Source: Microthyrium microscopicum
Lineage: Eukaryota
Assembly: GCA_010405405.1 (NCBI GenBank)
Contig: MU004241.1
Coordinates: 1 to 64,000, forward strand
Direction of reading: 5' to 3'
Length of the DNA stretch: 64,000 bases
Under the pieces are notes generated by a model. That model saw only the letters and a list, made by a program, of their open reading frames with translations, did not search any database and had not been told where the DNA came from. Position numbers and translations under genes: made by a program. Shown in pieces: positions 1 through 48,076 of this stretch. Positions within the stretch are counted from its first letter, which is position 1. The number at the start of each line of letters is the position of its first letter.

Positions 1-20
1 CCTAACCCTAACCCTAACCC
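1..20. repeat. Telomeric repeat (CCCTAA)n, chromosome end
   Basis: cctaaccctaaccctaaccc at the very start, the C-rich strand of the TTAGGG telomere, followed by a degenerate 'aaacc'. Confidence 0.9.
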
Positions 21-25
21 AAACC

Positions 26-3000
26 ATATCTTTTACTTATAATACATCTCTATAACTATATTAAAATTTACGTATAGTTTAAAGAATATTTCCTTACTTA
101 GTAAGCTTCTCTATAAACTAATATCTTTACTTATAATACGTCTCTATAACTATATTAAAATTTATATATAGCTTAAAGAATATTTTCTTACTTAGTAAGC
201 TTCCTTACGAACTAGTATCTTTGCCTATAATACGTCTTTATAACTATACTAAAATCTATATATAGCTTAAAGAATATTTTCTTACTTAATAAGCTTCTCT
301 ATAAACTAATATCTTTACTTATAATATATTTCTATAACTATACTAAAATCTATATATAGCTTAAAGAATATTTCCTTACTTAGTAAACTTCTCTATAAAC
401 TAATATCTTTACTTATAATATATTTCTATAACTATACTAAAATCTACGTATAGCTTAAAGAATATTCTCTTACTAAATCTAGTAAGCTTTTCTATAAATT
501 AATATCTTTACTTATAATATATTTTTATAACTATACTAAAATCTATATATAGCTTACTTAAAGGAAGATATTATAAGTATAGTCCTTTTAAAGAATATTC
601 CTATACTAAATTTAGTAAGCTTCTCTATAAATTAATATCTTTACCTATAATATATACTTATAACTATACTAAAATCTATATATAGTCTACCTTAGGAGAG
701 ATATTATAAGTAAGTAGTCCTTATAAAGAATATTCCTTTACTAAATTTAGTAAGCTTCCTTATAAATTAATATCTTTACTTAAAATATAACTTTATAACT
801 ATACTAAAACTTATATATAGCCTACTAGACTCTTTTAAGTAAGCTATAGTATTAAATAAAGGCGCTATCTTACTAAATATTAATAACTTTATTATAAATA
901 AAAATAATTTCTACTACTAAAATAGAAGTTTAGAAGTTTAGAAGTTCTTAGAGTAGTATAGATTAGTAGTAATATACTATAAATTAGATATAGTAGGTAA
1001 TATTATTAAGAGTAGTATACTCCTTTAGGCTTACTATTAGATTAAATACTAATCTAATCTAGATATTAATTATTTAGTTATACTTATAATATTTATATTA
1101 TAAGCTATAGTAATAAGTTAAGCTAATTTATAAATTTCTATATATTTACTCTATTAAATATTAGATTTACTTATCTTACTTAGGACTTTTATACCTACTT
1201 TTATTAAATTCTATTTATTTTAAATTAATAGTTTATTTTATTTTATAATTCTATATCTTTTAGCTTACTTATATCTTAATTTAAATATTATTTATTATAT
1301 AAGATATTTACCTAATACTTTTTAAATTTTAGATATCCTTCTCTTAGTAAGTATATAAGCTATATTAAATTTCCTATACCTATTTAATATTTAATAATAG
1401 TAGATAGGAAGGAATAATATAGTAGGCTTTATATTTAAATTAAATAGCTATAGAAGTATACTATACTAGAAAATATAAGATTAAGAAATAGAGAGAGCCT
1501 TTTAACTAAGAAAACTTACTCTATAGTAATAGAACGTTATTTTTAAAGTAATACTTACTACTAGATTATTAAGATTTAGTATAGTAAGACTATATAAGTA
1601 CAAAACTACTATATAGTATAAGCTTAAATAATTACTATAAATTCTATACGATTTTAGGTTACGTAAAATAATAATTATTTAGCTAAATTAGCTAATTAAT
1701 TTTTCTATTCTTCTATAAAAGAACTAAAAAGTTATTATTTTCTTACTTATCTAGCTCTAGATATAGCTATAAAGTAGCTTAGGAAGACTTAGGTATATAT
1801 ACTACTTACTATATAAACTAGCTTAGTACTACTTAAATATAATAACTAGATTAAAGTTATAGTCTTACTCTTCCTTAATACTAAAAAATCTTACTTTACT
1901 AAACCTTTTCTACTATAATTCTATTACTTAATTATATTAGTTATACTTAATTTAATAAGAGAAAATGAACTTATATATAATTTAGCTCTATAGAATTATT
2001 ATATAGTAGTGCTAACTATCCTAGTACTAATCTTATATTATTTTCTTACTTTTTTTATATTCTTTATAGTATAGTATTTTATAATAGTAGGCTAGCCCCT
2101 TAGATATTTAAGTATAGATATATTTTATAAAATAATTAGTATCTATAAGGAATACTTATATATTTAGTATTAGTAGTTCTACTAATTAGTAAGCTAAATA
2201 GTATATATAATAGTTTAGTACGTAAGCTAAGGAATATAAGCCTACTAAAACGTAACTTTACCTTATATAATATATATAGAGAAGTCTAAAATACTCTATA
2301 TTAATGTCTTAAAGCTTACGTAATTACATTAAAAGCTAAATATTACTTTTAGGGATATAAATTAGTAGTAGAGAAGCGTTAAAAGACGTCGTAGCTAAAG
2401 GGATAGAAGTCTTTAGTAACTTAGACTTACTAAAAGTTAGTAAGGTAGTTATAAGTAAAAAGGACAACGTACTAAAATAATATTATTTAGTAAGGAATTA
2501 CGTCCTTCTTGCTACTAAGATATAACACCTAACTTAAAAGGATAATATATACAAAAGGAACAATACTACTAAAGGAATATTATAGCTAAAGCTTACCTAT
2601 AAAGTAATTTAGTAAGGAACTACTACTACTAAGCTTTACTAAACTTTACTATAATTATAAATTCCTAACTATACTTTTATTTTTTTAAGGAAGAAGCCTT
2701 ATAGTATTTACCTTAATTAAAACCTTTATATAGTATTATTTTATTTATTAAAGCTATTTTAGGAGAAATATTATAAGTATAGTCTTCCTAAAGAATATTT
2801 CCTTACTAAATTTAGTAAACTTCTCTATAAACTAATATCTTTATCTATAATATATTCTTATAACTATACTAAAATCTATATATAGCTTAAAGAATATTTC
2901 TTTACTTAGTAAGCTTTTTTATAAACTAATATCTTTTACCTATAATACGTCTCTATAACTATACTAAAATCTATATATAGTTTAAAGAATATTTCCTTAT

Positions 3001-6000
3001 TTAATAAGCTTTTCTATAAACTAATATCTTTACTTATAATATATCTTTATAACTATACTAAAATCTATATATAGCTTAAAGAATATTTCTTTACTTAGTA
3101 AGCTTTCCTATAAACTAGTATCTTTACTTATAAGTAATACGTCTTTATAACTATACTAAAATCTATATATAGCTTAAAAAATATTTCTTTACTTAATAAG
3201 CTTTTTTATAAACTAATATCTTTACTTATAATATATTCTTATAACTATACTAAAATCTATATATAGCTTAAAGAATATTCCTTTATTTAGTAAGCTTTTC
3301 TATAAACTAATATCTTTACTTATAATATATCTCTATAACTATACTAAAATCTATATATAGCTTAGAGAATATTTCCTTACTAAATCTAATAAGCTTTCTT
3401 ATAAATTAATATTTTTACTTATAATATATTTCTATAACTATACTAAAATCTACGTATAGCCTACCTAAAGAAAAATATTATAAGTATAGTCTTTCTAAAG
3501 AATATTCCTATACTAAATTTAATAAGCTTCCTTATAAATTAATATCTTTATTTATAATATATATCTATAACTATACTAAAATCTACGTATAGCCTACCTT
3601 AAGAGAGATATTATAAGTAAGTAGTTCTTATAAAGAATATTTCCTTACTAAATTTAGTAAGCTTTCTTATAAACTAATATTTTTACTTAAAATATAACTT
3701 TATAACTATACTAAAACCTATATATAGCCTACTAGACCCTTCTAAGTAAGCTATAGTATTAAATAAAGGCGCTACCTTACTAAATATTAATAACTTTATT
3801 ATAAATAAAGATAATTTCTACTACTAAAATAGAAGTTTAAAAGTTTAGAAGTTCTTAGAGTAGTATAAGTTAGTAGTAATATATTATAAGTTAGACGTAG
3901 TAGGTAATATTATTAAGAGTAGTATGCTTCTTTAGGCTTACTATTAGATTAAATACTAATCTAATCTAGATATTAATTATTTAGTTATACTTATAATATT
4001 TATATCGTAAGCTATAGTAGTAAATTAAGCTAATTTATAAATCTCTATATATTTACTTTATTAAATATTAGATTTACTTATCTTACTTAAGACTTTTATA
4101 CCTACTTCTATTAAATTCTATCTATTCTAAATTAATAGTTTATCTTATTTTATAATTCTATATCTTTTAGCTTACTTATATCTTAATTTAAATATTATTT
4201 ATTATATAAGATATTTACTTAATACTTTTTAAATCTTAGATACCTTTCTCTTAATAAGTATATAGGCTATATTAAATCTCTTATACCTATCTAATATTTA
4301 ATAATAGTAGATAGAAAGGAATAGTATAATAGGCTTTATATTTAAATTAGATAGCTATAGAAGCATACTATACTAGAGAATATAGAATTAAGAAATAGAA
4401 AAAGCTTTTTAACTAAGAAGACTTACTCTATAGTAGTAGAACGTTATTCCTAAAGTAATACTTACTACTAGATTATTAAGATTTAGTATAATAAAACTAC
4501 GTAAGTACAAAACTACTATATAGTATAAGCTTAAATAATTACTATAAATTCTATATAATTTTAAATTACGTAAAATAATAATTATTTAGCTAAATTAGCT
4601 AATTAATTTTTCTATTCTTCTATAAAAGAGCTAAAAAGTTATTATTCTTCTACTTACCTAGCTCTAGATATAGTTATAAAGTAGCTTAAAAAAACTTAAG
4701 TACGCGTACTACTTACTATATAAACTAACTTAGCGCTACTTAGATATAATAACTAGATTAGAGTTATAGTCTTACTTTTCCTTAATACTAAAAAATTTTA
4801 CTTTACTAAATCTTTTCTACTATAATTCTATTGCCTAATTATATTAGTTATACTTAATTTAATAAGAAAAGATAAACTTATATATAATTTAGCTCTATAA
4901 AATTATTATATAGTAGTACTAACTATCTTAGTACTAATCTTATACTATTTTCTTACTTTTTTTATATTCTTTATAGTATAGTATTCTATAATAGTAGACT
5001 AGCCTCTTAGATATTTAAGTATAGATACGTTTTATAAAATAATTAGTATCTATAAGAAATACTTATATATTTAGTATTAGTAGTTCTACTAATTAGTAAG
5101 CTAAATAGTATATATAATAGTTTAGTACGTAAGCTAAGGAATATAGGCCTATTAAAACGTAACTTTACCTTATATAATATATATAAAGAAGTTTAAAATA
5201 CTCTATATTAATATCTTAAAGCTTACGTAATTATATTAAAAGCTAAATATTACTTTTAGAAATATAAATTAGTAGTAGAAAAGTATTAGAAGACGTTATA
5301 GCTAAAGGGATAGAAGTCTTTAGTAACTTAGACTTACTAGAAGTTAGTAAGATAGTTATAAGTAAAAAGAACAACGTACTAGAATAATATTATTTAGTAA
5401 AAAATTACACTCTTCTTACTATTAAAATATAACGCCTAACCTAAAGGAATAATATATATAAAAGGAATAATACTACTAAAGGAACATTATAGCTAAGGCT
5501 TACTTATAAGGTAATTTAGTAAAGAACTACTACTACTAAGCTTTACTAAACTTTACTATAGTCGTAAATTCCTAACTATACTTTTATCCTTTTAAGGAAA
5601 AAGTCCTATAGTATTTACTCTAATTAAAACCTTTACGTAGTATTATTTTATTTATTAAAGCTATTTTAGAAGAGATATTATAAGTATAGTCTTTCTAAAG
5701 AATATTTCCTTACTAAATTTAGTAAGCTTTTCTACAAACTAATATTTTTACTTATAATATATTCCTATAACTATACTAAAATCTACGTATAGCTTAAAGA
5801 ATATTTCCTTATTTAATAAGCTTTTTTATAAACTAATATCTTTTATCTATAATATATTCTTATAACTATACTAAAATCTATATATAGTTTAAAGAATATT
5901 CCTTTACTTAGTAAGCTTTTTTATAAACTAATATCTTTATCTATAATATATCTTTATAACTATACTAAAATCTATATATAGCTTAAAGAATATTTCCTTA

Positions 6001-7220
6001 CTTAGTAAGCTTCTTTACAAACTAGTATCTTTACCTATAATACGTCCTTATAACTATACTAAAATCTATATATAGCTTAAAGAATATTTTCTTACTTAGT
6101 AAGCTTCCCTATAAACTAATATCTTTATCTATAATACGTCTTTATAACTATACTAAAATCTATATATAGCTTAAAAAATATTTCCTTACTTAGTAAGCTT
6201 TTCTATAAACTAATATTTTTACTTATAATATATCTTTATAACTATACTAAAATCTATATATAGCTTAAAAAATATTCTTTTACTAAATCTAGTAAGCTTC
6301 TCTATAAATTAATATTTTTACTTATAATATATTCTTATAACTATATTAAAATCTATATATAGCCTACCTAAGGGAAAATATTATAAGTATAGTCCTCTTA
6401 AAAAATATTTCTATATTAAATTTAGTAAACTTCTTTACGAATTAATATCTTTACTTATAATATATATTTATAACTATACTAAAATCTACGTATAGCTTAC
6501 TTTAAGAAAGATATTATAAGTAAGTAGTCTTTATAAAGAATATTTCTTTACTAAATTTAGTAAGCTTCTTTATAAACTAATATCTTTATCTAAAATATAA
6601 CTCTATAACTATACTAAAACCTACGTATAGCTTACTAAACTCTTTTAAGTAAGCTATAGTATTAAATAAAGGCGCTACCTTACTAAATATTAGTAACTCT
6701 ATTATAAATAAAAATAATTTTTACTACTAAAATAGAAGTTTAGAAGTTTAGAAGTTCTTAGAGTAGTATAAGTTAGTAGTAATATACTATAAGTTAGATA
6801 TAGTAAGTAATATTATTAAGAGTAGCGTACTCCTTTAGGCTTATTATTAGATTAAATACTAATCTAATCTAGATATTAATTATTTAGTTATACTTATAAT
6901 ATTTATATTATAAGCTATAGTAGTAAGTTAAGCTAATTTATAAATTCTTATATATTTATTCTATTAAATATTAGATTTACTTATCTTACTTAAGACTTTT
7001 GTACCTACTTCTATTAAATTTTATCTATTCTAAATTAATAGTTCATCTTATTTTGTAATTCTATATCTTTTAGCTTACTTGCATCTTAATTTAAATATTA
7101 TTTATTATATAAGATATTTACTTAATACTTTTCAAATCTCAGATGCCCTCCTCTTAGTAAGTATACGGGCTATATTAAATCTCCTACGCCCATCCGATAT
7201 TTAATAATAGTAGATAGGAA
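26..7220. repeat. RIP-mutated subtelomeric tandem array, ~2.9-kb unit, ~2.5 copies
   Basis: Anchor 'ataaaggcgct' recurs with ggcgct at 861, 3768 and 6671 (periods 2907 and 2903). Extreme AT/TpA enrichment, no ORFs, copies differ mainly by transitions. Confidence 0.95.
2770..3740. repeat. ~94-bp minisatellite block inside each subtelomeric unit (also ~26-830 and ~5680-6640)
   Basis: Motif 'tatctttacttataat...ctataactatactaaaatctatatatagcttaaagaatattt' repeats; in the first block 'tatct' falls at 122, 216 and 310 (94-bp period). About 9 units per block, some longer variants. Confidence 0.9.
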
Positions 7221-7399
7221 AACGGGAAAGCCGCAATGATTTGAGGCTGGCAAAGCGAAGGAGGAGTGTCCATACGCACTCTCTGGACTGACCATACTGA
7301 CATTGGTTAATAGTTACCGCGTGGCCAGCAAGAAAAACCTGGAAAATTCAAGACCTTAGACGTTAACGCTCGTTAGCATCGGAACGACAATCCTCGAGA

Positions 7400-9372
7400 C
7401 TTGAAGCTGACTCTCTTGAGGGTTCTCCGCCTGCGTATTTGAGTCTCGCACCGAAAAGGCTCAAGTATGAATGGTATTTCCTTTCCACTGCATTCAGTAC
7501 TATATCAATCACAGCATCGGGATCGTACGTCAAGGCAAGGCTGTTCTATAAATGGTTTCAAGGTTCGTAAAACTGCGTTAACAGAAGTCATGCTTTCCAA
7601 TCACTTACGACCGTGAGAGTCAAACCGATATTGCAAGAACATGAGTTGGTTCAGTGTATTTCTAATGTTACCTTTCTTGGGACCAACATGCGCCCTGGAA
7701 ATGACGTATGGGGTCGTAATCTAAACTGTATGGATACACTTCACTATGACTTTCCCGCTTTGAAGACCAGTTGAAAGAGACAGTCAAATTTGAAAACAGT
7801 TGGCTCACCCAAAAAGTTGCTACCACAGCTCTCGCCATTAAACATGTCGCCACGGCGGTCATTTCGTGGAAAACTCAGCTTGCAGAAAGATGTTCAGAAA
7901 CTACCGATAAGTTGACGTTAGAATATAATGCTTCTGTGCCTAAGATTTCCGCACAAGAAATTCGCATGCAAGAGACACAATACGCATTCAAGCAGTTGAT
8001 AACCAAATTCGAAACGGCTGCTAGAGATCACGTCGAGCGGGAAGGTCTGGGCTCTGTCGCTGTATCTCTTGAAAATACATTGATGTTTACTCCACGGGTG
8101 AAAGAAGAAAGCTTCCATGTCAGGTGTTGCGCTGCATTAAACACCAGTTCCTCTGCTTGAGTATTCTTTGATAAGATCAAAACTGCAGCAGCTGGAAAAG
8201 TCGATTCGAAATATATATTCGCAAGTGGACTGCCATATACGTCTCAGCAGATGACTTCAAAACTCGGGTCAATTCATTGTTGAAAACCCCGAGAACCGCA
8301 CCAGATAGTAAAGAATTATCCAGCATTGACAAAGACAAGTGAGTAGGATTAAGCCTTTGCGTACCACCTTTTGCGACTGTCGGTGTATATTCTTTGCTGC
8401 GTCTCTGTCGAACAACAGGCAATGCAACATCCAATGTTGTAGCGTTGCGTGCCGTCGCAAATGACTGAGACTTCCAGATTATATCCATGTGTTGACGCCT
8501 GCAACTCGGTGTCTAATGCCTATTGAAGAGCTATGCGTGGACGTCTGCGCGAGCGGCTGAGGCCATAACCCTCCACATACTTAGAAAATCATGCTGACTA
8601 ACATTTTACATATTCATAGAGCTTTGTGATACAGATGAGCTGAGGCAAAACTCTGAAGAACTTCGTGGGCATTGCAACTCCTTTACGGCTCTCATTTAAG
8701 AGTACAGTACAACCAGCGGCTTCCTCAGTGATCCAAAATGCAAGCAGATCTAAAAAGCATAACCCGACAACTGGCCAACATGAACATCACTACTCCCGAT
8801 CAAGTTGACTCATCCCATTGCCTGTACCTGTTCCATCGGTTTTACGCGGAGACCTACAATAGTCAGAAGCTTCAGCTACTTTAGGAACCTGCAAGTACGG
8901 CCAGAGGTCTCCGTGCAATCAACTAGGGGCTCGATGACTACCTTCTTCCCGGTTTTGAGTTTGAATCTCTTGGTTATATCCCAATTGACACCCTGCTGGA
9001 AGAAGCAAGGATTCTTAGGAGCCAGCTTGATCGCTATCAAAAGGACGAAAGGTACAATCAAGTCGTGGCAACTCGCTTCAAGTTGTATCTCTCGTCTGTT
9101 TATCCGTTTTTCCCGGAAGATGTCTAAGGGCAGAATAAAAGTCCCAAGCCAAACGATGCTCAATAAGTCGATAGAGAGAAACTGGATCCACAGGAACAGG
9201 ATAGCCGGAAGAAAGGTCATTGCTTCGATTTCGATGGCACTCTGCGCATGATCTGGAAGTGCAACGCGCTCAGCGATGGTCGGCGAGATGTTCGCATGAA
9301 CAGCTTCTCCGTCTATTTTGAGGGGCTGTATTCCAGAGTCGCCCTGGTGAACCCGAAGATTAGGCAGTGAAT
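7400..9372 (+). pseudogene. Decayed coding sequence of unknown function
   Basis: Protein-like reading stretches (ORF 7771-8160; a frame across ~8800-9372 reading ...DDYLLPGFEFESLGYIPIDTLLEEARILRSQLDRYQKDERYNQ...GHCFDFDGTLRMIWKC...) interrupted by several stops. No family recognised; boundaries approximate. Confidence 0.35.
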
Positions 9373-12580: not shown

Positions 12581-13995
12581 TCAATCTTCGAGACCTGGAT
12601 ATGGAGGATCCTCTCCAATCTCCCTGTAGGTCTCGTTCAGTCGTTGTCTCATACCCTCCAGCATTACTCGACCAATTCTCTCACCTTGATGATGACGGAA
12701 CCACTGGCTGCATGGGCCCTCCGATACCAATTGCATTATTGCTGATTCAGTATTACCTGCTGTGTTCGGCGGTATGTACCTAATGAAAGTTCCTTGCGTG
12801 GTATTCCAGATATCGACTCCAGTGATGATTGCTCGGATCTCAACTGTGGGTGACAACACGTTATAGGTCAGTGTTGTTTCGATCGAGGAGTCGCGCGCAA
12901 ACGCAAGGCTGTATGTCATGCCGGGGTTTCCAGCGTCGCCACAGATGGCGGTTTTGCACCCGTCAGAGACATCAAGCTGATTAGGACGGACCCTGATATT
13001 GTCGAAGGCGGCGATCAGAGAAGAAGGGGTGGGATGATTTGCTAGATCTTCAAGTTCCTTAATACGAAGAGCCTGCGGTGTGCTCTCTGATTGACCGAGC
13101 TGTAGCCTCTGGATCTCTTGATCTTTTTCAGAGCAGCTGTGTGTGATGGTTTCGAGATTTCCTTCAAGTTCTAAAACCCGTGCCTCGATGGACTCCAGCG
13201 TATGAAGTTTTTCCCTCTGAGTTTGGCAGATCTCACGAAGGCTTCGAAGTTCTGCAGACTCGGCATCGCTGAGCGAGTTCGAGTTTGGGGGAGCGCCTGA
13301 TATCGGTCAGTGGCTATCAAATGTAATGGCTTCCATGACAGTCGGACAGAATCGTTATCTCTGGGAGCCATCGACTGCGATGGAGACCATCGCAGTCGCG
13401 GACAGAACCGTCATCTCTGGGAGCCATCGACTGCGATAGTTTCCATCGCAGTCGCGGACAGAACCGTCATCTCTGGGCGCCATCGACTCCGATGCTTTCC
13501 ATGGCAGTCGCGGACGGACTCGTTATCTCTGGGGCCCATCGACTGCGATGGTTTCCATGGTAGTCGCGGACAGAACCGTCATCTCTGGGAGCCATCGACT
13601 GCGATGGTTTCCATGGCAGTCGCGGACAGATTCTTACCTTGATTTTGAGCTGCAGCCAACTGGTATTGAGACTTGATCTTCACCACAGCGCGTCCTAGCT
13701 CTTTGATTCCCCATCCGTGAGAGTCTTCTGGCATTCCAATCACAGCGTACAGGTCGTCGGTCGTTTCATCATCCTCTGGCTTCCAGAACTTGTCATCATC
13801 AACTTCGGCGCCAAGAATCCCCAATGCTACTAAATCAGGTACGACTGTGTGGAGGGCCTGCTTCGCTCGGCTTGCAGCACCGCTGGTTGTGGCGCGCGAC
13901 TGGGTCAGCTTGATCAACTCAGCAAGCCTTTCTCCCTTCGCAGTAACTCGGTCCGAAAGGCTCAAACTGGAAAGATTTTGTTGATGCGCCATCAT
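12581..13995 (-). CDS. Orphan coiled-coil protein, ~357 aa, 2 exons (13995-13638, 13296-12581)
   Basis: ORFs 13579-13995 and 12581-12919 join in frame across a GTAAG...CTGAC...CAG intron (13637-13297). Exon 2 is open throughout and has a heptad-like segment (ELRSLREICQTQREKLHTLESIEARVLELEGNLE). Confidence 0.75.
13335..13630. repeat. Intronic 56-bp minisatellite, ~5 copies, each with an internal hairpin
   Basis: 'gtcgcggac' at 13395, 13451, 13507, 13563 and 13619. The unit contains cgactgcgatgg-NNN-ccatcgcagtcg (12-bp stem). Confidence 0.95.
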
Positions 13996-14081: not shown

Positions 14082-14147
14082 TTTAGGATGTAGCGACTCT
14101 GAAGTGGCCGCAGATCGAAGATTTGTCGTCTGTGGCAGAGTAAAATC
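14082..14147 (-). promoter_or_regulatory. Shared upstream element, copy A (inverted repeat of 16332-16397)
   Basis: Reverse complement matches 16332-16397 at 61/66 nt. Ends ~87 nt upstream of the ATG at 13995. The repeat is certain; the regulatory role is inferred. Confidence 0.6.
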
Positions 14148-14671
14148 GTGCAATGGCCCAGAGAGAAAGGGAAGCAGACAAGCAAGACGCAGGCATAAAA
14201 GTCGTGGGGCAAAAACTTCGAAGGACACAGCTTGGAAGATACCAAAAAGGAAGGAACAAAACCCAAACTTCCCCAAGTAAAACATCAGCAGCCATAAAAA
14301 CTACCCTCCAGCTAATCTCGTAACGAGCCGCGTTGCGCTCCAAAACGCATTTCAGGAGGCATAGAAGCTCATCATCATCTTGATCCGCGTTGAGAAAGAT
14401 TAGCGTAGTAGATTGTAGGTACTATGTGACTAGTATGAAATTTATCCCCTCTTGCATTACCCCCCCAGGCCGGATCATAATTGCGACTATAACGAGATTT
14501 GATACTTTTGAATGCATTACGCCACACCTTTGAACCTGATTCATCCGCACAAAAACATGATATGAAGCCACCACCCGCTTCTGGGTTCACTCCGCCTGAG
14601 ATACCGTAACTCCCATCACGCGCGAAATGAGGTCGCCGAGCTTCCTAATGGAATGGGAGCAGAGATTGGCG

Positions 14672-15670
14672 TCATTCGGCCTCGTCGGTGCTATCGGTGG
14701 GAGGATTGGTCCAGGTCAAGCCGAGCTCAGATGACCAGTAGACGCAATGATGCCCGTTGCGTTCGCAGAAATCACACGGGCCCAGCTGATTTGTCCATGG
14801 GTAAGACGCTGAGCCTCGGTTTTTGGAGTGGACCTTCACGCATTTCGTACGGTGATTGAGGTTCACCTGGTAGTTGTTCTGAGCCGTGATATGACTCATG
14901 CCGGCAAGGACCTCGATTAGATCATTGGAGAGGATGGTTTCACCTTCAAGCCAGACTGCTCGATCTGTGTGCGTCATGGAACTCCAGCCGTGAGGTACAA
15001 GCATGGAGACATGAGTAGAATTGCGTAGGCTTGCAGTGTTTGCTGTTGCTGCAGGGACGGCTCTTCTTCTTGGGGTCGCTTGGGTTCTTTGGGTCTGAGT
15101 ATTACCCGTTGTGGCATTGCCGTTCGAGGCACGCGATTGCTGTAAAAAGGGACGTCGAGGTGTGGGTCCCATTACATGGGCTCCTGTCATAGTCGGCAGT
15201 TCACTGCTTGGTGGCTGGGTGCGTTGGCGTAATCTGGAAACATGCTGAGCTCCTTCGTCATCCTCTTCGTCCTCCTCTTCTTCTTCATCAGTTGCCTCTC
15301 TCCTCCTCTTCTGACCTGGAGTCGGGCCAGGCTCGTGGCCAAGTGATCTCAACTGCTGCTTCAAGGCATAGCATTGTGTCTCAAGTTCCCCGATTCGGCC
15401 ATCTCGCTGGACAACCTGCTGCTGCAGCTGCCGAATCCCTTGTCTGAACTGCTGCTCTTTCGCATCATACCAGACCCGCTTCTCTTTGCGGTAGCTGACG
15501 ACCCTTCTCAAGACTCCAGCCAAATTATCGCTCAGGTTTGTTACATCCATCATGGCCTGGGTTACGAAGGCTTCGTTAGGTCTGGACCAGCCTTGGCCCT
15601 TTCCCAATCGGTTGGAGATGTCACGGAAATCCCGGAGGTGGTTCGTCAGGGAGTCGATGATGTGATCCAT
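14672..15670 (-). CDS. Orphan protein, 332 aa: coiled coil, basic (KRRR) plus acidic tract, C-terminal Cys/His putative zinc-binding domain
   Basis: Intact ATG-to-stop ORF; C-terminus CVKVH...CDFCERNGHHC. Confidence 0.75.
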   Translation of the reverse strand: MDHIIDSLTNHLRDFRDISNRLGKGQGWSRPNEAFVTQAMMDVTNLSDNLAGVLRRVVSYRKEKRVWYDAKEQQFRQGIRQLQQQVVQRDGRIGELETQCYALKQQLRSLGHEPGPTPGQKRRREATDEEEEEDEEDDEGAQHVSRLRQRTQPPSSELPTMTGAHVMGPTPRRPFLQQSRASNGNATTGNTQTQRTQATPRRRAVPAATANTASLRNSTHVSMLVPHGWSSMTHTDRAVWLEGETILSNDLIEVLAGMSHITAQNNYQVNLNHRTKCVKVHSKNRGSASYPWTNQLGPCDFCERNGHHCVYWSSELGLTWTNPPTDSTDEAE

Positions 15671-16331
15671 GGCAGCTGCAATCGAGAGGATGCAATGGGT
15701 GGGAGGAGACTTGCTTGGAAGGAGAGGATCTGATGAGACGAGAAGCCGTGGTCGGTGGTCACTGTATGGTAGGCCAGCGAATCTGGTAGTAGCAAAGGCC
15801 CTTGCTCGGAAGAAGAGGATCTGATGGGAAGAAGGAGTTTCGGTTCGTGATGGTTTGCGTCGTAGGCCAGGAGCCCTTGTGGGAGCCAGAGAACTCGATG
15901 CCGATTATGGCATTCGAAGGGACTTGAGAAGAAGGACAAGATCACAGAGAGAAGCTTTATGGTACTGCTGTGATTCCAGGTGATGCTGACGATTGGGTAA
16001 AAGGTCAGGCTCGCCTTCGAATTGAGGGGCGAGTTCTGGGCGTGCTGCCATTCGCAGCCAATTCTTCTGGCGATACTAGAATTGCAGCATTGCTGTGGCC
16101 AGCTCAGAGGAAGTTACACCCCTCTTGGTCCTGGCAGCAACGACAGCCTTGTTGGTGGGGGATGGTGGCGGCTCTTTCTTCTGATCATGGCACTCCTTTC
16201 CTCTGATCATGGCGGCTCTTTCCTCTCACCGCGACAGTTCCGCCTTCCCATCACCCCAACAATTCACCTTCTGGCCTTTGACTGGCACTCTTTTCTTCTT
16301 TTTGCTTTGCTTCCTCTTTGGGCCAATTCGG

Positions 16332-16397
16332 GATTTTACTGTGCCACAGACGACAAAGTTTTGATCTGCGGCCACTTCAGAATCGCTACATCCTAAA
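16332..16397 (+). promoter_or_regulatory. Shared upstream element, copy B
   Basis: Inverted copy of 14082-14147, ending ~39 nt upstream of the ATG at 16436. Confidence 0.6.
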
Positions 16398-20616: not shown

Positions 20617-22109
20617 CTAATACGTAGCCAAAATACAAGTAAAAGTGCCCACCCATAGCGCAATCAATGATACAGACGATGGGGACAGCACTGAAGCAGC
20701 AGATTTTGCAGGGGTGGACAAAGCAGAGCTTTCACCAGCCGCTTCAATTGGTGCCCATGATGAGCTGGGTGAGCCTTGATACTGACTTCCAGCTGGATTG
20801 GATTGAAGTCCGGGCGCGTGGCCTGCACCCTGGGTCATATATTTTGTTGCCAGCTGTGGAATGACTGGCAGTGAAGCGTTGACTTGCCAATTGGCCCCTT
20901 CAGGTGGACAAGCACTAGCTTTGTTTTCCGGTTTGTATCCTCCATTTCCTGAGGGCATTGGTGTGCTGTTAAAGGCGCTTTGAAGTGCAGCGAAGTCGGG
21001 TCTTGCCTTGACACTGGCTCCATTGATATCAACCACTCCATACCCAGCCCCAGGAAAGTCCTTTGAAAAGCCCTCCCAGGAATATTCGTAAACAAGCCCA
21101 CCGGAGTAAACAGGCGTCATATCAGAGGAATACAAGGGAGCCACATCACTGAAAATTCGTGGTTGAACTTTAATGCAGCCATACTCAGACAAGCTTTCGT
21201 ATGAAGTTAGAGACAGAGTCTTCTGGGAACATGTTTGCACTTACAACATAGGGGCACTGTAGTTGTTGAAGAGCTTGACTTTACCAGCCCATGTAGAGGC
21301 TGAAAATGATTGTGGACCACACCAAGAATAATCATTGAAACCGATAAAATCAGTCCTTACTTTATCTGGTCCACAGTTGAGATATGTGGCTATTTCATAG
21401 TGCGTTTCTTCAACATCTGTTGCTGCGTAGCCTACTGGAATCGTTCTGTATTTTCGAGCTGCAATGTACGCCTTCATATCTCGAATTAAAGCTTTAATGT
21501 AGGGAGCGGACCAAGTCTCTGTTTTTGTGATCACTTCATTGGCGGCGAAAAAGGCTAGAAGGTTGTCGTATTTGGAAAATGTGTCTATTGTTGCAAAAAC
21601 GCTCTGCAAGTAGACGTCACTGTAAGATCTTCTCATCGTCTCACGGTCTTGTCGATTGAGTGAGTACTTGGGAGAGTTGACGTCGACTGCCAGATATATG
21701 CCAGCATCTGCGAGTTGTTTCATGCAATCATCATGGTTGGCGGAGTTGTCGACTGTGTAGACTCGGACAGTGTTTATGCCCAATTGCTGGAACTTCTGAA
21801 TGTCGCGTTTGCATCCAGCGGCATCTGCAAGCGGATCTTTCAAACCACCTTCACCGCCTGAGCCTGACATTACAATGTCAGCATGTAAAACCATGGACGC
21901 GGATATGCATACCAGGTTGATAATCCAGTCCACGAATGTAAAATCTGTTCTCTCCAGCAAAGAACGCTACCGAGATAATCAGCGAAATCAGTCTAAGATG
22001 AAAGTCTGGACAAACCATTTCCCTTGACGGCTATGGGTGGAGTACTTGCGCCGGCAACATGGTATCCAAAAGCCCAAATGATTGCAATACGTGTCTTGAG
22101 AATCTTCAT
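20617..22109 (-). CDS. GH72 beta-1,3-glucanosyltransferase (Gas/Gel family, no X8 domain), GPI-anchor type
   Basis: Signal peptide MKILKTRIAIIWAFG..., RFYIRGLDYQPG, DPLAD...C.RDI, GINTVRVYTVDNSANHDDCM, FAANEV, NDYSWCG, SEYGC, YSGGLVYEY, hydrophobic C-terminus; three short introns. Confidence 0.93.
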
Positions 22110-33399: not shown

Positions 33400-35049
33400 T
33401 GCTTAAAGTCAATAGAATTTCATCGACTCTTATGAAAATATTGGGGCCGGAAAGCTTAAGGAGTCTTGTCATATAGTCCAAGTATCTTGGAAGATTGGTT
33501 TCATATATCATCTACATGGATCATAATGCGTCGTCATTACTCTTTTGACATCTTCTCAGCCACTAAATCATTTCCATTGCGATCAATTAGCCATAACCTA
33601 GTAGTTTTGGGACCAACGAAAAGCCTTCGTGCTCTTTTTGTATCTTCATATTACTTTTTGATACAAGCGGAACAATGAATAGCATTAGGTCGAGAAATCC
33701 ATATGCTGGCAGACCAGTGGTGTCGGAAAAGTCGGCAGTCTCTTTCAAGTAAGATTTAGGGCGAAAGCAACATGCTATCCGGATATAAAGCTAGCTTCAT
33801 CACTAATTTGAATTATATGTTTAAGTTTGGTACCCTGCGAACCTATCAAGTCTCGCTGAAGCCCCAAAAGTTCCTGGAATAGCATCCAAGGATTGGGCTT
33901 TGAACTCATTCTTTGTATTCTAGTAATTTCTAAGCGAATCGCAGCCCGTGATGTGAAAACTCACATTGACTTAATCAAATGCACTACGGAAGGGTCCAAA
34001 TAAACCATAATAATCTGGAGTTTGGTCTATCCCTTCCTCTTCTGTCACTGATTTCAAGGTTTATGGTCATTGTATATTGTTAGAACCGGGTATGTGGAAA
34101 TTTAAATAACAAGTTCCGTTTTCACGAGATTCAAATCACTCCTTCTTACCTGATGGCAGAGCCATGATCTTTTTCAATGTATCAATTTCAAAGAGCCCTT
34201 GTGCTAGCTTTCATCTGCAACTAAATATTCTCTGTTCTGTGTTCGACAAGCACCATTCGAAAAAAAGCGGACTCATGGATACTACAGCATGTACGTAAAG
34301 TTTGATATAACGGGTAGGCAGCTTAAGATGTCATTTTGGGTGTAATAACAAAATGGAAAGTTCAGTCTGCGAATTTAGCCCGCAGTGACTGCAAATCTTC
34401 TTTTGCTCATTCATGCTCGGCCTTATTCATCATTCCACTAGATACTCTCAATAACTGATTGTCCATGAGTTCATTTCTTGCTCACCTTAAGCACGAACAT
34501 TGCAAATCAGCTGTACAGAGCAAAAACTCTTAATTAGGACTTCGCAGCAGGCTCATATAACGGCGCATTACCGCCAACCCCGCTCAAGATAAGAACTTCT
34601 AAACTTCTAAACTTCTAAACACGTTACTATATTACTATATTAGCGACGTTACCCTATTACTATATTACTATATTACTCTTTAATCTTTAGAGCTCTAGGT
34701 TATTAATTATAAATAATTATAATTCTATCTTACTACTTAGAAGTTATTATATTTATATTAGGATATATCTTTCTAATAAGTTAATATAATTATATATATA
34801 TTATATAATAATTAGTAGGAAGTATAAAGTATAAAGTATATAAATAATTACTAAACGTAAGTTTATATTACTATCTAATAAATAGGTATATATATATATA
34901 TCTACCTAAACTAATTAAGTATCTATCTCTTTCTTAGAGTTATTCCTTATACTTTTTACTTTATTATCTTATCTATAATAAAATACTAGGCCTTACTCCT
35001 ATTAATTTAGAGTTCTATTAAGATAAGATTAAAAATCTTATTATAAAAT

Positions 35050-36710
35050 AGTTTTTTACTTATTTAAAAGTTATATATTAGCTAAAAGAAAACTATAATA
35101 TTAATATTACGCTAAGTATACTACATTAGAGGATTAAGTAATAAAAGATCTAACGCTTTATAACTTCTTTATTAGAGTACTATAAAAAGCTTAAGAAAAT
35201 AATAAAATTCTTATTTTATAATAAGAATAGTAATAAAGATAAAATACTCTTTACTCTTTAAACTATAGAATATTTAATAACTATATAAACTTTTTAGCAT
35301 TATTAGTAAAAGCTTAGTCTTAAACGCTACTATAAGTTTACGTTAGATAAAGATTTTATAATAGCTTACTACTAAGATAAAGTAATAGTTCTAGCTAAGC
35401 TTTATAGAGCTTATTTATTAGTATCATTATATAGCTATTAAGCTCTAGCTACTAGACTTTATAAATATAAATACTTAATTCTAGAGGCTTAGATTAATTA
35501 AATTTAATAAGATTTAGATCCTATTAATATATAAGCTTACTAGAGATAAAAATATTAAAAACGTAGCAAATATAGGACTAAAGGCCTAAACTATATCTAG
35601 TTAATTAATAGGTATAATAAACTTAAAAAAGTAGGAATTAAAATTTATAGCTATATTAACGTCTATTTATAAAATATAATCTAGTATTATATTAGTATAT
35701 TAAATACTATAAGTATAAGTTATTTATATTAGTACTTAGATTAGTTAACTATTAATTTTATAATTTCTTAGTTTATTTACTTAGATTAAGAAGGCAAAAT
35801 TATAATACTTATTAACGCTTATTATAAGTTTATAAAGGCTCTAGAGTATAGAATTTCTTTCTTAGATTATTATTTATATAAAACTAGTATTATAAATTAA
35901 AGGATTAAGCGCTAGTAAGGAAGCCTTAGTAAATTAGTATTAACTAAATAGTAAGTAAGTTATATAACTACGTATACTTAAGAGTTAGTACTAATATAAT
36001 AACTTACTAGATATTCTTTAATAAGCTAGTTAATAAGGGTTTTTATTTAAAAGATAAACTTAAAGACTAAATTATAATACTAGCTATTTACCTTTCTATC
36101 TTATAGTATATAGTAAAGGAATTTATTAATAACTAGAATAACTATAAGATTATTAATAATAAGAAAAAGTAACTATACGTAGTAAATAGTAAACCTTAGT
36201 ATCTATATACTTTTCTTTAAAGAGCATAAAATATAGGCTTAGTTACTAATTTAGTAGTACTTTAGGCTAAGAAAGTAATAGTAGAAAACTAGGATAAGGA
36301 CGCTTTTTTACTACTTAATATACTTTAATAGTATAATAAAAAGCTAGATATAATAAAATTTAATTTTAATAGTAACTCCTTTAAAATAAAAGAAAATTAG
36401 TATAATCTAATAAACTTATATCTTAGTTACTATCTTTACTTATAAAGAGTAATTAGTTACTATATAGTATTAAGTAATGCCCTAATTCTAGCTACTCTTA
36501 AAAATCCTTAAGGTAATAAAGCTTAGATTAGAGATTACCTAAACTACCTTATAGTTTAGGAGATATAGAAGGCTATAAATAAAGATAATAAAGATAGTAA
36601 TATTATAGAGTTCTAGGCTACTATAGAATATATAGGACTTAGCTATCTTAATAATAATTAATTAGAGGATAATTTTAATATTAATTTAGCTAAAGAAGAG
36701 AAAATTTAAG
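35050..36710 (+). pseudogene. RIP-mutated IS3/IS481-type (integrase-core) DDE transposase
   Basis: From 35583 it translates GLNYI*LINRYNKLKKVGIKIYSYINVYL*NII*; reversing transitions gives GPNYIWSIDGHDKL..GI.IYG.IDAYSR.IIW. Later YLD*EGK (RSDRGGE) and SIIN*RIKR** (ST.NQRIERWW, ~35887-35918). Boundaries approximate. Confidence 0.8.
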
Positions 36711-39700
36711 TTAGTAATATAGAGAGCAAAAGTAATATAGAAGAGGAGCTTTAGTTTATATTTAGGCATTTTAATTAATAATAATAATTTATAATGATTT
36801 TATATACCTTAATTACTTTTTAAAACCTTACTATACTAGTAAAGCTTAATACTATAAGGTATATTATTAAATAAATAGTATATTCTCTTTATATTAAGTA
36901 ATTAAAGATTTCTAAGTCTCTTAAGTCTCTTAAATTTCTTAAATCTCTTAAGTCTCTTAAAAAGAATAATATAGACGTTACTTAAATTTTTAGTTTTTTT
37001 CTTTATTTTTAATAACATTAATAATAGAGTAAGGGCCTATAGTAGTATTAGGCTTAGTACTTTTAAGTACTTATTTTATTATTATAAATAGCGTATAAAT
37101 TAATTATAATTAAGTAACTAAAATATAATATCTAAAGTGCTAGGTACTTATAAGTATATCTCTTAAAAGAGTTATTCTTATGCCTTTAGTTATATTTATT
37201 AACCTATAAGAGCCTAGGTAAAGATAAATAAAAGATAACTTAAGGCTTTATATATTACTACTATTAGTACTATATATAATTAAAAACCTAGATAATATAA
37301 TTAAGGTTTCTAACTCTAAAACGCTATTATAACTATAGTAATATATTAAATAAGAGCTTTTTTTTATTAAGATAAAGGAATATAATAATATTTTATTATA
37401 AAATTTAAGTAATAAAAGAACTTTAGATAATTTTATTAAAGCGTAATATAGTTAGAGAAGCTACTAGAACTACGTAGAATATAGATTAATAAATGCTATA
37501 GTAAAGCTAGATTCTATTATATAGAAGATTTAATAAAGCGTATTAGTAATTCTTAAAAAAAAAGGTATAAGATTCTATTAAGATATAAGTATAAAAACTT
37601 ATCCTAGTTTAGTTTTTAAAATAACTCTAATATAAATAGAATAGAAAGTAGAGATCTATTTTTATATTATTAACTATAAAACGTAGAGTAACTATATATA
37701 ATTTAACTTTATTAAAGAATATTATAAGTAGCCTAGTTATTAGGATAGCTTATACTAATATATATAATAGCTTTAGTAAATATAAACCTTTTTTAGGGTA
37801 ACGTTAAGAATATTTAGAACTTTATTTATAAATATTTAGCTTCTTATTTAGACGATATAATACTTACTAACTATAATAAAGTCTTTATTTATAGTAAGGG
37901 TATCTAAAACGTTAAACTTACTAGTAAAATTAAATTAAGTAAAGAACTTATAGGTTACGTATTCTTAAAGAATAAGAAGAGTAAGGCTTTAGGCTTTCTC
38001 TTAAAGTAAGGAGAGCCTTCTAAGATTAGCCTTATTAATAGAATATATAATATTATTAAGCTAGCTAGCATTACTATAAATAAGTTTATTAAAAGAGCTA
38101 CCTTTAATATTAATAAGGAGAGTTAACTATAAATTTACTTAATTATATATAAGTATTAAGAAATTATTCTAGACTTTAATTCTAATACGCTTACTTTATT
38201 AGTATCTACTTTAAAGACTTTAAAGGTACCTACTCTAAAGACTTTAAAAGTATATTAGTAGCTACTCTTAGAATAAACTCTTTTAAGACTTAGGTTAGAT
38301 AAAGCTATTAAAGCTAATCTAGGTACTTAAGTAAAGCTTAAGAAAGTTAAGCTTAATATAGATATCCTTAAAAAGATAAAAGCTACTATACTAGAAGCTA
38401 AGTAAATTATAAAGAATCTATAAATAGTAAAGAATTTAGTAGAAGATAAAAATAGATAAGGCCCTAAGTCTATTATAAATAATAAAGATAATAGCCCTAA
38501 TAATAATAAAAAAGCTATAGCTAGTAGTAAAGATAATAATTCTAATGCCTTATTGCTATTATTAAGGACGTTATTTTAGTAACTAAAAGAGAAGAAAGCT
38601 ACTAAAGAAGAGAAGAAAGCTACTATTACTAAGTAAGAGAAGAAAACTACTAAATAAGATATATAGAAGTAGGCTATATTTTAGGTTAAGTTATTAGAGA
38701 ATAGTATATCTACTTACGCTTTCTAATTTTATAAAGTAGTACTTACTTTAGTAGATAAATAAGTAGCTATAGTTATTAAAGTAAATATTCTTAAGGTAGC
38801 TAAGGCTAACGTAGTAGTAAAGAAGTATAAGGGGCATAGAGAAAAGAATATAGAATATAGACGTAGAAATAAGAAGTAAGGTAGCGTTACTTAGTTATAT
38901 TAAAAAGCTATTTAGATATTTTTACTTATTTAATACTTATTATAGTTTTATTATACTTATTTTACTCTTTTTTTTACTAATTCCTAAATAATTAAGGTAG
39001 CGTTAACTTATTAATAATTACTTAGTAAATACTTTCTTTACAAACTTAGTAGGAGTTCTATATATAATAAATATAATGCTATCTTAATTTAGTAAAGAGG
39101 CTAGTAAAACCTATAACTATTACTAGCCTATTATTTCTAACTCTATTAGTAGAATTACTAATTTAGAAAGAATATATTAAATACTTAGCTAAAAAGTAAG
39201 GAGTAAGCGTAGAGAACTTATTAAGGTTTCCTTTTAATAACGACGCTACAACTAGGATTAAGTTATATTTAGTAAATAGATCCTACGTTAGGCTTACTAA
39301 ATTATAAGCTACTTATAACTTAACTAGACTTTAATAAACTTTAGTTTCTTAAAATAATTATTTCTTAAAGTTAATTAAGTAATCTTCTATTAAGCTTTAA
39401 GTATTACGTCCTTTATACGTAGACCTTAAACTTAAATAGGACTAAATCTTAAGAAGAGTTAACGCCTTTCCTAAAATAGAATTAACTAATTTAACAATAT
39501 ATTCTTATATAGGTACTATACATATACTATAAAAGAATAAGTAACTAGCTTATTAAACTATTATATTTCTTCTTTATTTTACTAAACTAATGCCTTTATA
39601 ATACTTAAGCAGTTTATTAACTTATAGGTTAAACCTAAATAAACGTTAGTAAGTATAATAATTAATATAATTTATTAAGTAGAAGTTATAAAACGTAGTA

Positions 39701-40021
39701 TAAAAAACTACTATATAAAGATAAAATAGTTAAGAAATAAGCTTAAGGAATTTACATAATATTGCTATAAATACTACTAGAACTAGAACTACTAATTAAA
39801 AATTAAATTAATTAAAAGTAGTACTAAACTATAAATCTAGAGGCTAAGGAAGTTATTAGTTAAGTATTAATATATTTCTATAAAAAATTAGTTATATTTC
39901 TATTTAATACTATTAGCTACTTACTAAGATATATAATAATAGTCGTTAAGCTTTAACTCTAATTCTAATAAACTTTCTTAGGTTGCTAGTTTGTAGAGGA
40001 GTTATAGTCTTATTTGAGGTA

Positions 40022-43000
40022 TAGTGTTATTAGGGTTATCTTTACCTACTCCTTAAAAATATAAAATAGAGCTTTAGGCTGTAATTAGGTGGATCTACGA
40101 GTAGAACTAGGCGTTATAGTACAAATTTGTAGGGCGCCTCCTAGTCGCGGCCTATTAGTAGCCCCTAAAAACTATTCTTTCTAAATACTACATCTTGGGT
40201 CGCTATTAAAGCTGTACTAGTAATACAGATAGCGGAATAGTAGTATTTAATTACTGCTTATTCCTTACTTTAAGATATCTTAAATAGGTAGTATTCCTAT
40301 TAGTTAATAGCGTTTAAAGCTCTTTAATAGTAATTGTATCTTAACGGAGCTAATTAGGCTATAATCTTGAGTTAGGATCTTAAAGATATTAAAGCTAAAG
40401 TAAGTAGAAGAGTAGTATTCCTACTAGTAGAGTTAAAGATCTAGAGTTAAAGATATTAAATAGCATAGGATTATTAGCATTAAGGGCTAATTATTAATAA
40501 TTATATCTTAAGATTAGATAGAATAGTAAGCTTATATAATTATTAGAGAGCTATTCTAGAGTTAATGAAGTAGTAATAGCGACGACTATAAGATATCTTA
40601 TTAATATAGTCTAAAATTATTAAAATATATCTATTTAACGTTATCTTACCTTTAATAATTCCTTAATATCTTCTATATAACTTCCTACTACTCTTTTAGT
40701 ACTAAAATACTTCTTAATACTATAGTTTATACTTATTAGGTCCTTAGTCCTATCTAATCCCTAAACCGCTATATCTCTATGCATACTATAGGTAAATACT
40801 ACTCTCTAGTACCTAAAAAGGCTATTAGGTAGTTATTTAAGATCTATATAGACGTAGGTAGAAGTCCTTTACTAAAAATGCCTATACTTACCCTAAAGGC
40901 TTTAGTAGCATCTTATCTTAGACATCCTATTCCTATATCTTATATAGCGCCTATACTATTGCTTATTATCTTTCTAAGTAATGTTAATATAAATACTATT
41001 ATTCTTGATTGTTTACTAATATTATTAGCTTCTTAGGTTTAACTAGCTAAGTGTCCTTTATAATAGGATGCTAAGACTTAAGATATCTTAGAATATGCTA
41101 CTAATAGATTATAACTTTAAGATATTAATATTACTTAGCCTCTTTTAGTTAAAGAGACCTAAAATATGCCTAACGCTACTTAAGATATTGTTTATAAGCG
41201 TTAATATAGCCTAGACTACGTCTAAGAGATGTATTTACCTAGAATTGCTACCTAAAATGCTATAATGGATAGCGCTTAGCATCCTAAGATATTTTTACCT
41301 AATTCTAGCGCCCTAGTTCCTTAGATTAACTCTACGCTATTACTACTACTAGTACCTAAATTCCTTCCTAAAATTACTATTATTACTAAGATCTAAAAGT
41401 AAAGAATGCTTATAGTTAAGAATAAATTTAAATAGTATCTTCGCTAGAGCTTAGTTAAAGGCTTTAAAAAGACTTAGGACTAGCTAAATTTGCGCCTTAA
41501 AGAATAAGGAACGATGTATAGTTCTTCTATCTTAATTTAGACGTTTTTAAAGTAAAAAATAAAGAGAGGGACTAAAGATCTTTAATATAGCTTTAGTATT
41601 AATTTAGGCTTAAGCGATAGGGAGCTTAATAGTATTCTTACTTTAATTTAGCGCTAAATTACTTACTAGTATTAGACTAATTTCTATAATAACTCTTAAC
41701 GTATTAGTAATCTTAAATAGAAGATTATATTTAGTATTACTAAGCTTAAATGCCCTCCTTTAGCGTTAATAATAGTAATAGAGATATTAGAATAAGTAGA
41801 TCTATAGTATAAAGAATATTAATAGCGTATTAATTCCTCTTTAGAATTTATAAAGTTAGTAAGGGAATATCTCTATAAAAAGGAGAAATGTCTAAATTAC
41901 CTTAATGGAGAGTACTACTAGAAGGATCCTTATAATAAATATATTTTCCTTAACGCTATAGATTTAAACGAATAGGCCTAAAAGATAGTAAAGGGTAAAT
42001 GTAATATTAAAATACTACCTAATATAATGATAATAAGGCTCTTAGAATCTATAGCTATTTAATAAGCTTACTATTAGTATAAAATAATAACAATATTAAA
42101 TTTAAATTTATAACTTATTAATATTAATATTTATTATAATTAAGAGAGCTTAAACTTACTTAGTAGGTCGTCTAATAGGCTCTTTAGTAGCTAGAGCTAG
42201 CGTACGTGCTTAGCATCTTTACTACCCTATAGTAATATTCCTATAGCCTTATTACTACCTTTAGGGCCTCTATTAGTAACAAAATACTACCTAGAGAAGG
42301 AATTTACTAAGTTTAAGAGGTAGTTCTATAATAATTTGAGCTTTAGGTAGTATTTAGTATTTAATCGTATTATAGAAGCCCTTAAAGCAAAAGGATATCG
42401 TTTAGGGCGGGCTATAGGGCATAATTATACCTAGTTTAAGTAACTTCTTAGTAAGGAGCTAATATTTAGGATTAATAATATACTTAAAATTTGTAAGGAA
42501 ATTATTACTAATTTTTGTTAGTATTATACTTATTAGAGTAGGCTTCTTAACGATACTAATTCTAAACTATCTAGATAGGAATTGTAATAGTAATAGTTTA
42601 ATATTAAATTCTTATTATAGTATAAAGAAGTTAGGATTAGAAGTAATAATTAAAGCTATTTCCTAGATATTTCTACATAACCTTAGACTCTAAGGGATTT
42701 TATTATTCTTTATAATATAATCGCTATATTGAATATACCCTTTAGCTTACTTTCTACTAGGTACTCCTTTACCTAAAACTTTAATTCTAATCCTTAAAAA
42801 CTGCTTAAAAGATATAGAATTCTTGTAGGTATACTACTAGTAGTTATTTATCTTTAACTAGGCCTTTAAATTACTAAAAAACTCTTTAATGGGATTAAAA
42901 TCTAGGTAGTAAGGTAGTAGGAATTCTAATCGTACCTTTATAGCCCTAAATATCTTATAGATAACTTTACTATAATAAAAGGACGCATTATCTATAATAA

Positions 43001-47000: not shown

Positions 47001-48076
47001 TAGAATTATAGCCTTAAGAAAGTATTATTAGTAAAATAGATAAAGAAAGAATAAGATTAGACTTAAAAAGTATACTAAAATTATTTTATTATAACTAGTA
47101 AGCCTATTTATAAGATAAAATCTCTAAATAAGAAGGTAATTAGTTATTATTAATAAGCCTACTATAGATAATAGTCTATAATAAGCTATAACTAATAAAG
47201 GGTAGTAATATTATTTATATCCTATATATAGTATCTCTAAGTAGTAAATAGTTATAGTATTTAGTATAACTAAAATACTAATTAATTAATAGTTAAAAAC
47301 TATTTATATTACTATAAATTAACCTAGCGTAATATAATATATTAATATAGAACATATTAACATTAAAGATATTAAGACTTTTTTTTAAAAGAAAAAAATT
47401 AATATAAAAAATATCTTACTATTTTAATCTTCTCTAGAAAGCGTATTAAAGAAAGATAACTAATAAAGTATAATAAGATATTTTTAATAATAAATACTAA
47501 AGTATAAATAGTTATAAAGATTATTATAATATTATTACTCTAAAAGGGTTTTAATATTAATTAAAATTTACTAAAATACCTTTATAGTAATTTTACTAAG
47601 TATTAGTATAAATATACTACTTAATAAGCTTTATTATAAAAAGCTTTACTTACCTAAGTAATACGTAGTATTAAATAATATTACTTAGTAATAAAAAGGC
47701 TTTATAGCTATTTTAGCTAGTTAATACCTATATATCTAGAAAACTAGACTAAGTTATAGAAATAGGTTAGATTAGTAATCTCTACTAGTTTTAGCTACCT
47801 TAAAGCTAAGTAATTATTAAATAATATTTTAAAAAGTAACTATAAGTTATTCTTTTTATTTTACTAAAATAAATATATATAATAAGTAAAATAATATCTT
47901 AATCCTTTATATAATAAATAAAATAATATCTTAATCCCTTATATAAAGTATTTCTCTATAAAGAGTAGATACCTTAACGTATTCTAATAGGTTATTTATA
48001 GAGCGCGCGCTATAAGTAAAATACTAAGCATTTTACTATAAAGTATCTTACTATATATATTTTCTTAAGTAGTTTT

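Follow-up and report, generated by a model that had tools for sequence, protein, structure and literature searches.

How the end of a chromosome comes to be built from pieces of a transposon is the question raised by the first 7.2 kb of the DNA analyzed here, a 64,000-nt stretch (positions 1 to 64,000 of Microthyrium microscopicum contig MU004241.1) referred to below as the window, within which all statements that a sequence has no match elsewhere apply. Telomere repeats at its left end are followed at 26–7220 by an AT-rich array, and a 15.3-kb terminal inverted repeat (TIR) element, a relative of the transposon found in the array, lies further in at 34556–49858. A first-pass annotation had described the array as tandem units of about 2.9 kb, each joining the right arm of the element to flanking DNA, and BLAST comparison of 1–7300 with the window bears this out, with a period of 2,903–2,907 bp; approximately 85% of these 7.2 kb comes from transposon sequence. 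Beyond that annotation, the copies have diverged by repeat-induced point mutation (RIP), a minisatellite within the arm appears to have expanded first, and the distal unit is truncated and, as it reads, healed at the telomere.

Results

The C-strand telomere repeat CCTAACCCTAACCCTAACCCAAACC, (CCCTAA)n, occupies 1–25 and ends in the irregular CCCAAACC, with the boundary to the array somewhere in 20–26. GC content over 26–7220 is 20%, and that of the next 27 kb is 45–51%. The array comprises 2.5 head-to-tail units on the forward strand, namely a distal unit Z (26–1404), delimited by BLAST and tandem-repeat calls and cut within a minisatellite, followed by the complete units A (1405–4311) and B (4312–7220, the innermost). 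The unit period is 2,907 bp, with Z-to-A spacing of 2,903 bp owing to a 4-bp indel. In the BLAST comparison 26–4317 matched 2929–7220 at 91.5% identity over 4,296 columns and 26–1410 matched 5836–7220 at 91.0%, and a repeat search arrived at an identical spacing of 2,907 bp, placing third copies at 48.1–49.7 kb. These head-to-tail units, with one novel junction and a last unit running into unique DNA, constitute a segmental tandem duplication array, which is without coding capacity.

Each complete unit opens with an interior-like part of approximately 1.48 kb (1405–2885 in A, 4312–5792 in B) that is colinear with 48077–49559 of the element and matches it at 84.5% and 84.8%, respectively, confirming the colinearity from 48077 noticed on first reading. 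Two overlapping sets of minisatellite repeats follow, of 94 bp (2789–3460 in A, 5696–6363 in B and 26–556 in the truncated Z) and of 133 bp (3366–3732, 6264–6639 and 455–826), and lead into a tail homology of approximately 230 bp, in which 699–927 of Z matches 49440–49666 at 86.5%, as do likewise 3601–3834 of A and 6497–6737 of B; the element part colinear with the units thus extends over 48077–49666 on the forward strand. Each arm then terminates in a TIR end (928–981, 3835–3888 and 6738–6791) and is trailed by a flank piece (982–1404, 3889–4311 and 6792–7220). A comparison of the units with the 15.3-kb element over 1,462 bp counts 166 transitions, 35 transversions and 40 gap columns, and these transversions and gaps indicate that the donor was a different, already diverged member of the family.

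The TIR-like end seen in each unit on first reading was recovered by motif search. The motif GTTTAGAAGTTTAGAAGTTCTTA, allowing at most 3 mismatches, occurs seven times in the window (shuffle mean 0.01), with three occurrences in the array, all on the plus strand at 928, 3835 and 6738, and the other four overlapping at the two element ends, at 34590/34598 (minus) and 49794/49802 (plus). The array therefore holds right-end TIRs only, as no left-end TIR was found there by this search. The last approximately 20 nt of the unit TIR equal the element terminus (…GTTGGCGGTAATGCGCCGT) except for G-to-A and C-to-T changes, and similarity ends at that point. A 125-bp piece (49667–49793), which in the element separates the tail homology from the TIR repeats, is missing from all three units and occurs in other family copies of the genome, as seen in a read-contig loose end at 3831.

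Copy numbers of the 94-bp repeat were 5.6, 6.8 and 7.0 in Z, A and B, respectively, and those of the 133-bp repeat 2.7–2.8 (Tandem Repeats Finder, TRF). The stretch from which both repeats derive (49428–49696) is found about once in the element. Units A and B are equal in minisatellite copy number and register, with spacings of 94, 98, 94, 94 and 94, 94, 94, 94, suggesting that expansion of the 94- and 133-bp repeats is older than duplication of the 2.9-kb unit.

The flank piece, 423–429 bp in length, trails all three arms. When searched against 7221–64000 it gave only 61–66% matches, spread across the two strands of the AT-rich element and due to composition, not homology; a piece of about 430 bp absent from the element had been described on first pass, and this description is upheld. 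Behind the innermost arm the piece runs into unique DNA of 45–50% GC at 7220. Within this window these findings support a probable origin of the piece as host flank.

The exits of the units behave as the first-pass annotation had stated. Unit B passes from flank straight into GC-normal unique DNA at 7220 (…GATAGGAAA|ACGGGAAAGCC), whereas in Z and A the flank is joined to element interior (…GATAGGAA|GGAATA…), the element itself near 48077–82 reading …TTTTTAGAAA|GGAATAG…. The junction letters are taggaa at 7215–7220 and at 1405–1410 (plus strand), where the BLAST alignments share these 6 nt, and tagaaa both at the same junction of the next unit (4312–4317, plus strand) and at 48077–82 of the element, giving a shared block TAG(G/A)AA. 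The two internal junctions align base for base, transitions aside, and this identity indicates one founding join followed by homologous amplification. Since RIP turns G into A only, the G at 1408 must be ancestral, so that the certain microhomology is 2 nt, rising to 6 nt if the donor element carried G at this position. In simulated joins the probability of at least 6 nt was 0.001–0.01 and that of at least 2 nt was 0.16–0.29. The letters of the microhomology proposed at first reading are therefore present, while its full length holds only if the G/A mismatch is a RIP change.

Differences between copies are almost exclusively transitions. Over 1,481 bp of interior, 121 transitions separate A from B, with 0 transversions and 0 gaps; whole units A and B differ by 259 transitions and 2 transversions, and in a three-copy comparison of 1,379 ungapped columns all 178 of the 178 variable columns were transitions; overall the copies differ at approximately 9% of positions. 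Dinucleotide ratios in the array were 1.64 for TpA/ApT and 0.05 for (CpA+TpG)/(ApC+GpT), as against 0.68–0.77 and 1.22–1.37 in GC-normal DNA of the same window, and only three CpA were kept in both A and B. By context the A–B differences fall at CpT (155 of 259), CpG (46), CpC (34) and CpA (24). Transition-only copy differences, depletion of CpA/TpG with excess of TpA, and confinement of mutation to duplicated DNA are together the signature of RIP, which probably acted in several rounds. The transition-only divergence further indicates that the units started out identical and that each was then mutated on its own.

The inner boundary of the array carries a record of where this process stopped. 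Repetition ends at 7220, to the base where GC jumps from 0.33 to 0.52, and toward that edge the GC of copy B runs 0.20, 0.22, 0.33 and then 0.52 past 7220, while Z and A remain at 0.12–0.18 over the same columns. Among the 25 variable columns in the last approximately 190 alignment columns (7030–7220 in B, plus strand), the derived T/A state is carried by Z and A together in 15, by Z alone in 6, by A alone in 3, by A and B in 1 and by B alone in none; elsewhere pairs of copies share derived states about equally (26, 24 and 21). The outermost approximately 190 bp of the innermost copy thus largely escaped RIP. The flank ends of Z and A lie inside long homology that crosses the junction, and that of B forms the outer limit of all homology. 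This edge pattern shows that the array was already arranged as it is now when RIP struck it, and that the flank end was once GC-normal. The pattern agrees with the available portion of a preprint (10.1101/344036), which describes, for direct repeats in Neurospora, a higher propensity for RIP on the inner, linker-facing sides.

At the opposite end, position 26 in Z falls inside the minisatellite, its counterparts being 2929 in A and 5836 in B. Left of that point A and B read …TTTTTTATAAACTA, and Z reads (CCCTAA)n CCCAAACC. Telomere repeats therefore abut sequence that is internal in the sister copies, and the end of the distal unit resembles a terminal break at which a telomere was added de novo, presumably by telomerase. 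The AAAC at 21–24 of Z is also present in A and B, which makes the boundary ambiguous within 20–26 and a short seed possible, if not provable. The telomere motif occurs in the whole 64-kb window only at 6–23, with no interstitial tracts between units. Healing of this kind has been observed directly in Magnaporthe oryzae, in which, according to the available text of PMC7367193, terminal truncation was accompanied by de novo telomere formation on seeds of 1–4 nt; the same text attributes the growth and shrinkage of subtelomeric tandem repeats to unequal chromatid exchange or break-induced replication (BIR).

Read data came from five sequencing runs, all in the form of short-read contigs aligned at 97% identity or above, the depth of which is unusable as copy number; four of the runs are one sample, probably the assembly's own source, and do not constitute independent support. 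Copy-specific contigs with 0 differences were found throughout the array, the 4312 junction is spanned by a contig of 95 nt, and contigs of approximately 6.3 kb (three records) bridge 7220. The copy-specific contigs, together with the 9% divergence between copies, make a collapsed or expanded repeat artefact unlikely. The remaining run, X5 (another organism, 0.06 of words), yielded 24 short pieces, most running into unlike sequence; these are no evidence for this array in that organism, and the missing cover over 7201–9000 proves nothing. A joint from 1019 to 1199 seen in contigs has sides of only 21 nt in AT-rich sequence and was disregarded. Loose contig ends reveal further family copies in the same genome, some with the 125-bp piece and some with a less mutated TIR tail, and read contigs exit the array within the TIR repeats (at 942 and 6756) into such a tail (…GAAGTGGCCAGGGTTGGC). 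These tails indicate that the genome holds members of the family less affected by RIP.

The 15.3-kb relative (34556–49858, plus strand) is itself RIP-degraded, standing out as a block of 22% GC with sharp borders in GC-normal DNA. It is bounded by TIRs of approximately 100 bp (34556–34655 and 49751–49858), with arms that are 85% complementary over 87 nt and 97% over 62 nt. The hexamer GGCTCA directly borders both ends (34550–34560 and 49855–49865) provided that the TIRs end in YATA; other readings of the target-site duplication are TA, a 4-bp YATA, or 8 bp with RIP. A Pfam scan of the element, on the minus strand only, gave a DDE_3 transposase remnant of Tc1/mariner-IS630 type as its sole match and none in the left half. 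The remnant (PF13358) lies at 42849–43157 on the minus strand, with an E-value of 8.8e-08 and 32.6 bits against a cut-off of 28.6, stops being read as X. Tc1/mariner-IS630 elements are usually small, about 1.3–2.5 kb. The element, at 15.3 kb, is far larger than these, and TA is only one of three readings of its target site; any placement in that group would be tentative, and the remnant may belong to a nested insertion, around which no convincing nested TIRs were found.

Nearby open reading frames (ORFs) encode a GH72 glucanosyltransferase, a 2EXR/DUF7730 protein and a GFO_IDH_MocA/Gal80-like oxidoreductase, and these genes, taken with the TTAGGG telomere and RIP, indicate a filamentous ascomycete. 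The GH72 gene (20617–21966, minus strand) is split over two adjacent frames (profile positions 45–242 and 244–312), probably by an intron or a frame change. A 2.3-kb segment of GC-normal DNA at 14082–16397 carries 95-nt inverted repeats at its ends (86% complementary, starting TTTAGGATGTAGCGA) and encloses a 410-aa ORF (14672–15904, minus strand) with no Pfam match; no clear target-site duplication was seen, and the segment may be a second TIR element that has not undergone RIP. A 56-bp tandem repeat of 5–6 copies at 85–91% identity occupies 13343–13686, also within GC-normal sequence, and coincides in part with open frames of either strand.

Discussion

The history that best accommodates these observations, and which as a whole we regard as quite probable, would begin with insertion of a TIR DNA transposon, a diverged relative of 34556–49858, with its right end at present position 6791 and its body directed toward the telomere. 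That a related element inserted near 6790, making the chromosome end transposon-derived, had already been proposed in the first-pass annotation, and the restriction of the array to right-end TIRs, with the transposon-derived share of the terminal sequence, supports it. The 94/133-bp stretch near the right end would then have grown into the minisatellite. A single illegitimate join would have brought host DNA lying 429 bp beyond the element (now 7220) up against a point 2.4 kb within it (equivalent to 48077), by end-joining or template switching at a microhomology of 2–6 nt, creating a tandem duplication of right arm plus flank. From these two units unequal sister-chromatid or homologous exchange, or BIR, could have produced at least three. 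Unequal exchange, BIR and rolling-circle copying are indistinguishable in the resulting array; of the possible routes, one illegitimate tandem duplication followed by unequal exchange is favoured. In later sexual cycles RIP would have mutated the copies independently to 20% GC, with a sharp stop at the duplication boundary, and a break in the minisatellite of the distal unit, whether before or after RIP, would have been healed by telomerase, with loss of the remainder of the element and of any units farther out. RIP serves in this reconstruction as an internal clock by which the duplication came first, and the outer edge of the array is a natural record of RIP stopping at a repeat boundary.

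Several observations weigh against this history or limit it. A microhomology of 6 nt needs the G/A mismatch to be a RIP change, and 2 nt alone is no better than chance. The flank, at 16–21% GC and with RIP saturated, is too AT-rich for its nature before RIP to be recovered, and support for its host origin is confined to this window. Copy number and unit order rest on the assembly plus short contigs, of which none among those listed spans the telomere junction or that at 1405.

Some simpler origins were considered and set aside. Tandem whole elements are ruled out by the lack of a left-end TIR in the array, a transposase-made duplication by a junction 2.4 kb inside the element and not at its terminus, and two independent insertions followed by exchange by the same 423-bp piece behind all three arms.

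A different origin is conceivable in which the array is the scar of telomerase-independent end maintenance, the arm plus flank having been copied repeatedly, once the telomere was lost, by microhomology-primed BIR or from a rolling circle and the end later re-capped by telomerase. Such an origin would suit the position of the array directly at the telomere, its head-to-tail order with a single junction type and the de novo-looking telomere junction of its distal unit, and BIR-based extension of arrays at fungal chromosome ends is described in the available text of PMC7367193. We nevertheless consider it unlikely, as the units are not separated by interstitial telomere tracts in the manner of yeast Y' or MoTeR arrays, as there are only 2.5 of them and nothing sets them apart from ordinary tandem duplication with unequal exchange, and as the founding join faces away from the telomere, which a simple internal tandem duplication would also give. 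The fuller form of this idea, in which the array would be a natural survivor resembling alternative lengthening of telomeres (ALT), its arm and flank copied by BIR or rolling circle, re-capped by telomerase and then frozen by RIP, appears quite doubtful.

The identity of the 423-bp piece bears on the preferred history of duplication and exchange in another way, since the piece might be some other RIP-degraded repeat or an element variant, in which case the unit would consist of repeats only and 7220 would simply be the end of an old repeat island. It is as AT-rich as the element, with an origin that cannot be read from its letters, and run X5 holds short near-identical pieces including 953–1087. 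The TIR terminus is, however, exactly where homology to the element family ceases, and the piece shows neither a specific match in the 15.3-kb element nor an inverted TIR; repetition ends at the very base where GC rises to 52%, as expected for RIP after duplication, and in X5 a 0.73 share of the aligned sequence runs into unlike sequence, leaving short shared stretches and not the same locus. On balance we judge this explanation distinctly improbable. Repeats beside contig ends are error-prone, and with read data limited to short contigs that leave the telomere junction unspanned the assembler could itself have set the number or order of the units or made the telomere join. That the copies differ by approximately 9% in their RIP pattern, as three real loci would, and that contigs with 0 differences bridge 4312 and 7220 render such an artefact very improbable.

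The tandem duplication with subsequent RIP may be set beside known chromosome ends. In Neurospora-type ascomycetes, AT-rich subtelomeres are formed of RIP-mutated transposon relics. The array resembles these in being AT-rich, CpA-depleted and non-coding, with transition-only divergence, beside a TTAGGG telomere. It is unlike such dispersed relics in being a local three-copy tandem of one arm plus flank, the outer edge of which records where RIP stopped. By analogy with Neurospora, its present role, if any, is likely to be that of a passive buffer, AT-rich and prone to heterochromatin, that keeps the telomere apart from the first genes. In type I survivors of yeast the Y' units are shared between ends, code for a helicase and have telomere tracts between them; the array shares with Y' the tandem arrangement of kb-size units at a chromosome end and differs from it in lacking such tracts. 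Alternative transposition of maize Ac/Ds yields tandem direct duplications with junctions at transposon termini, and here too a transposon end and its flank are included, whereas the array junction lies well inside the element. In Magnaporthe oryzae, as far as the available text of PMC7367193 describes them, head-to-tail subtelomeric units, unequal exchange or BIR, and a telomere at an internal break all have their likeness in the array; MoTeR arrays, being retrotransposons separated by TTAGGG tracts, are in that account unlike the present units of DNA-transposon arm plus flank without interstitial tracts, and the events observed there live are here ancient and precede RIP. The component processes are all known in fungi and the array is a clear, fairly ordinary example of them, the value of which lies in the cleanly readable history of one fungal chromosome end and in its use as a marker for comparing isolates, and not in a new mechanism.

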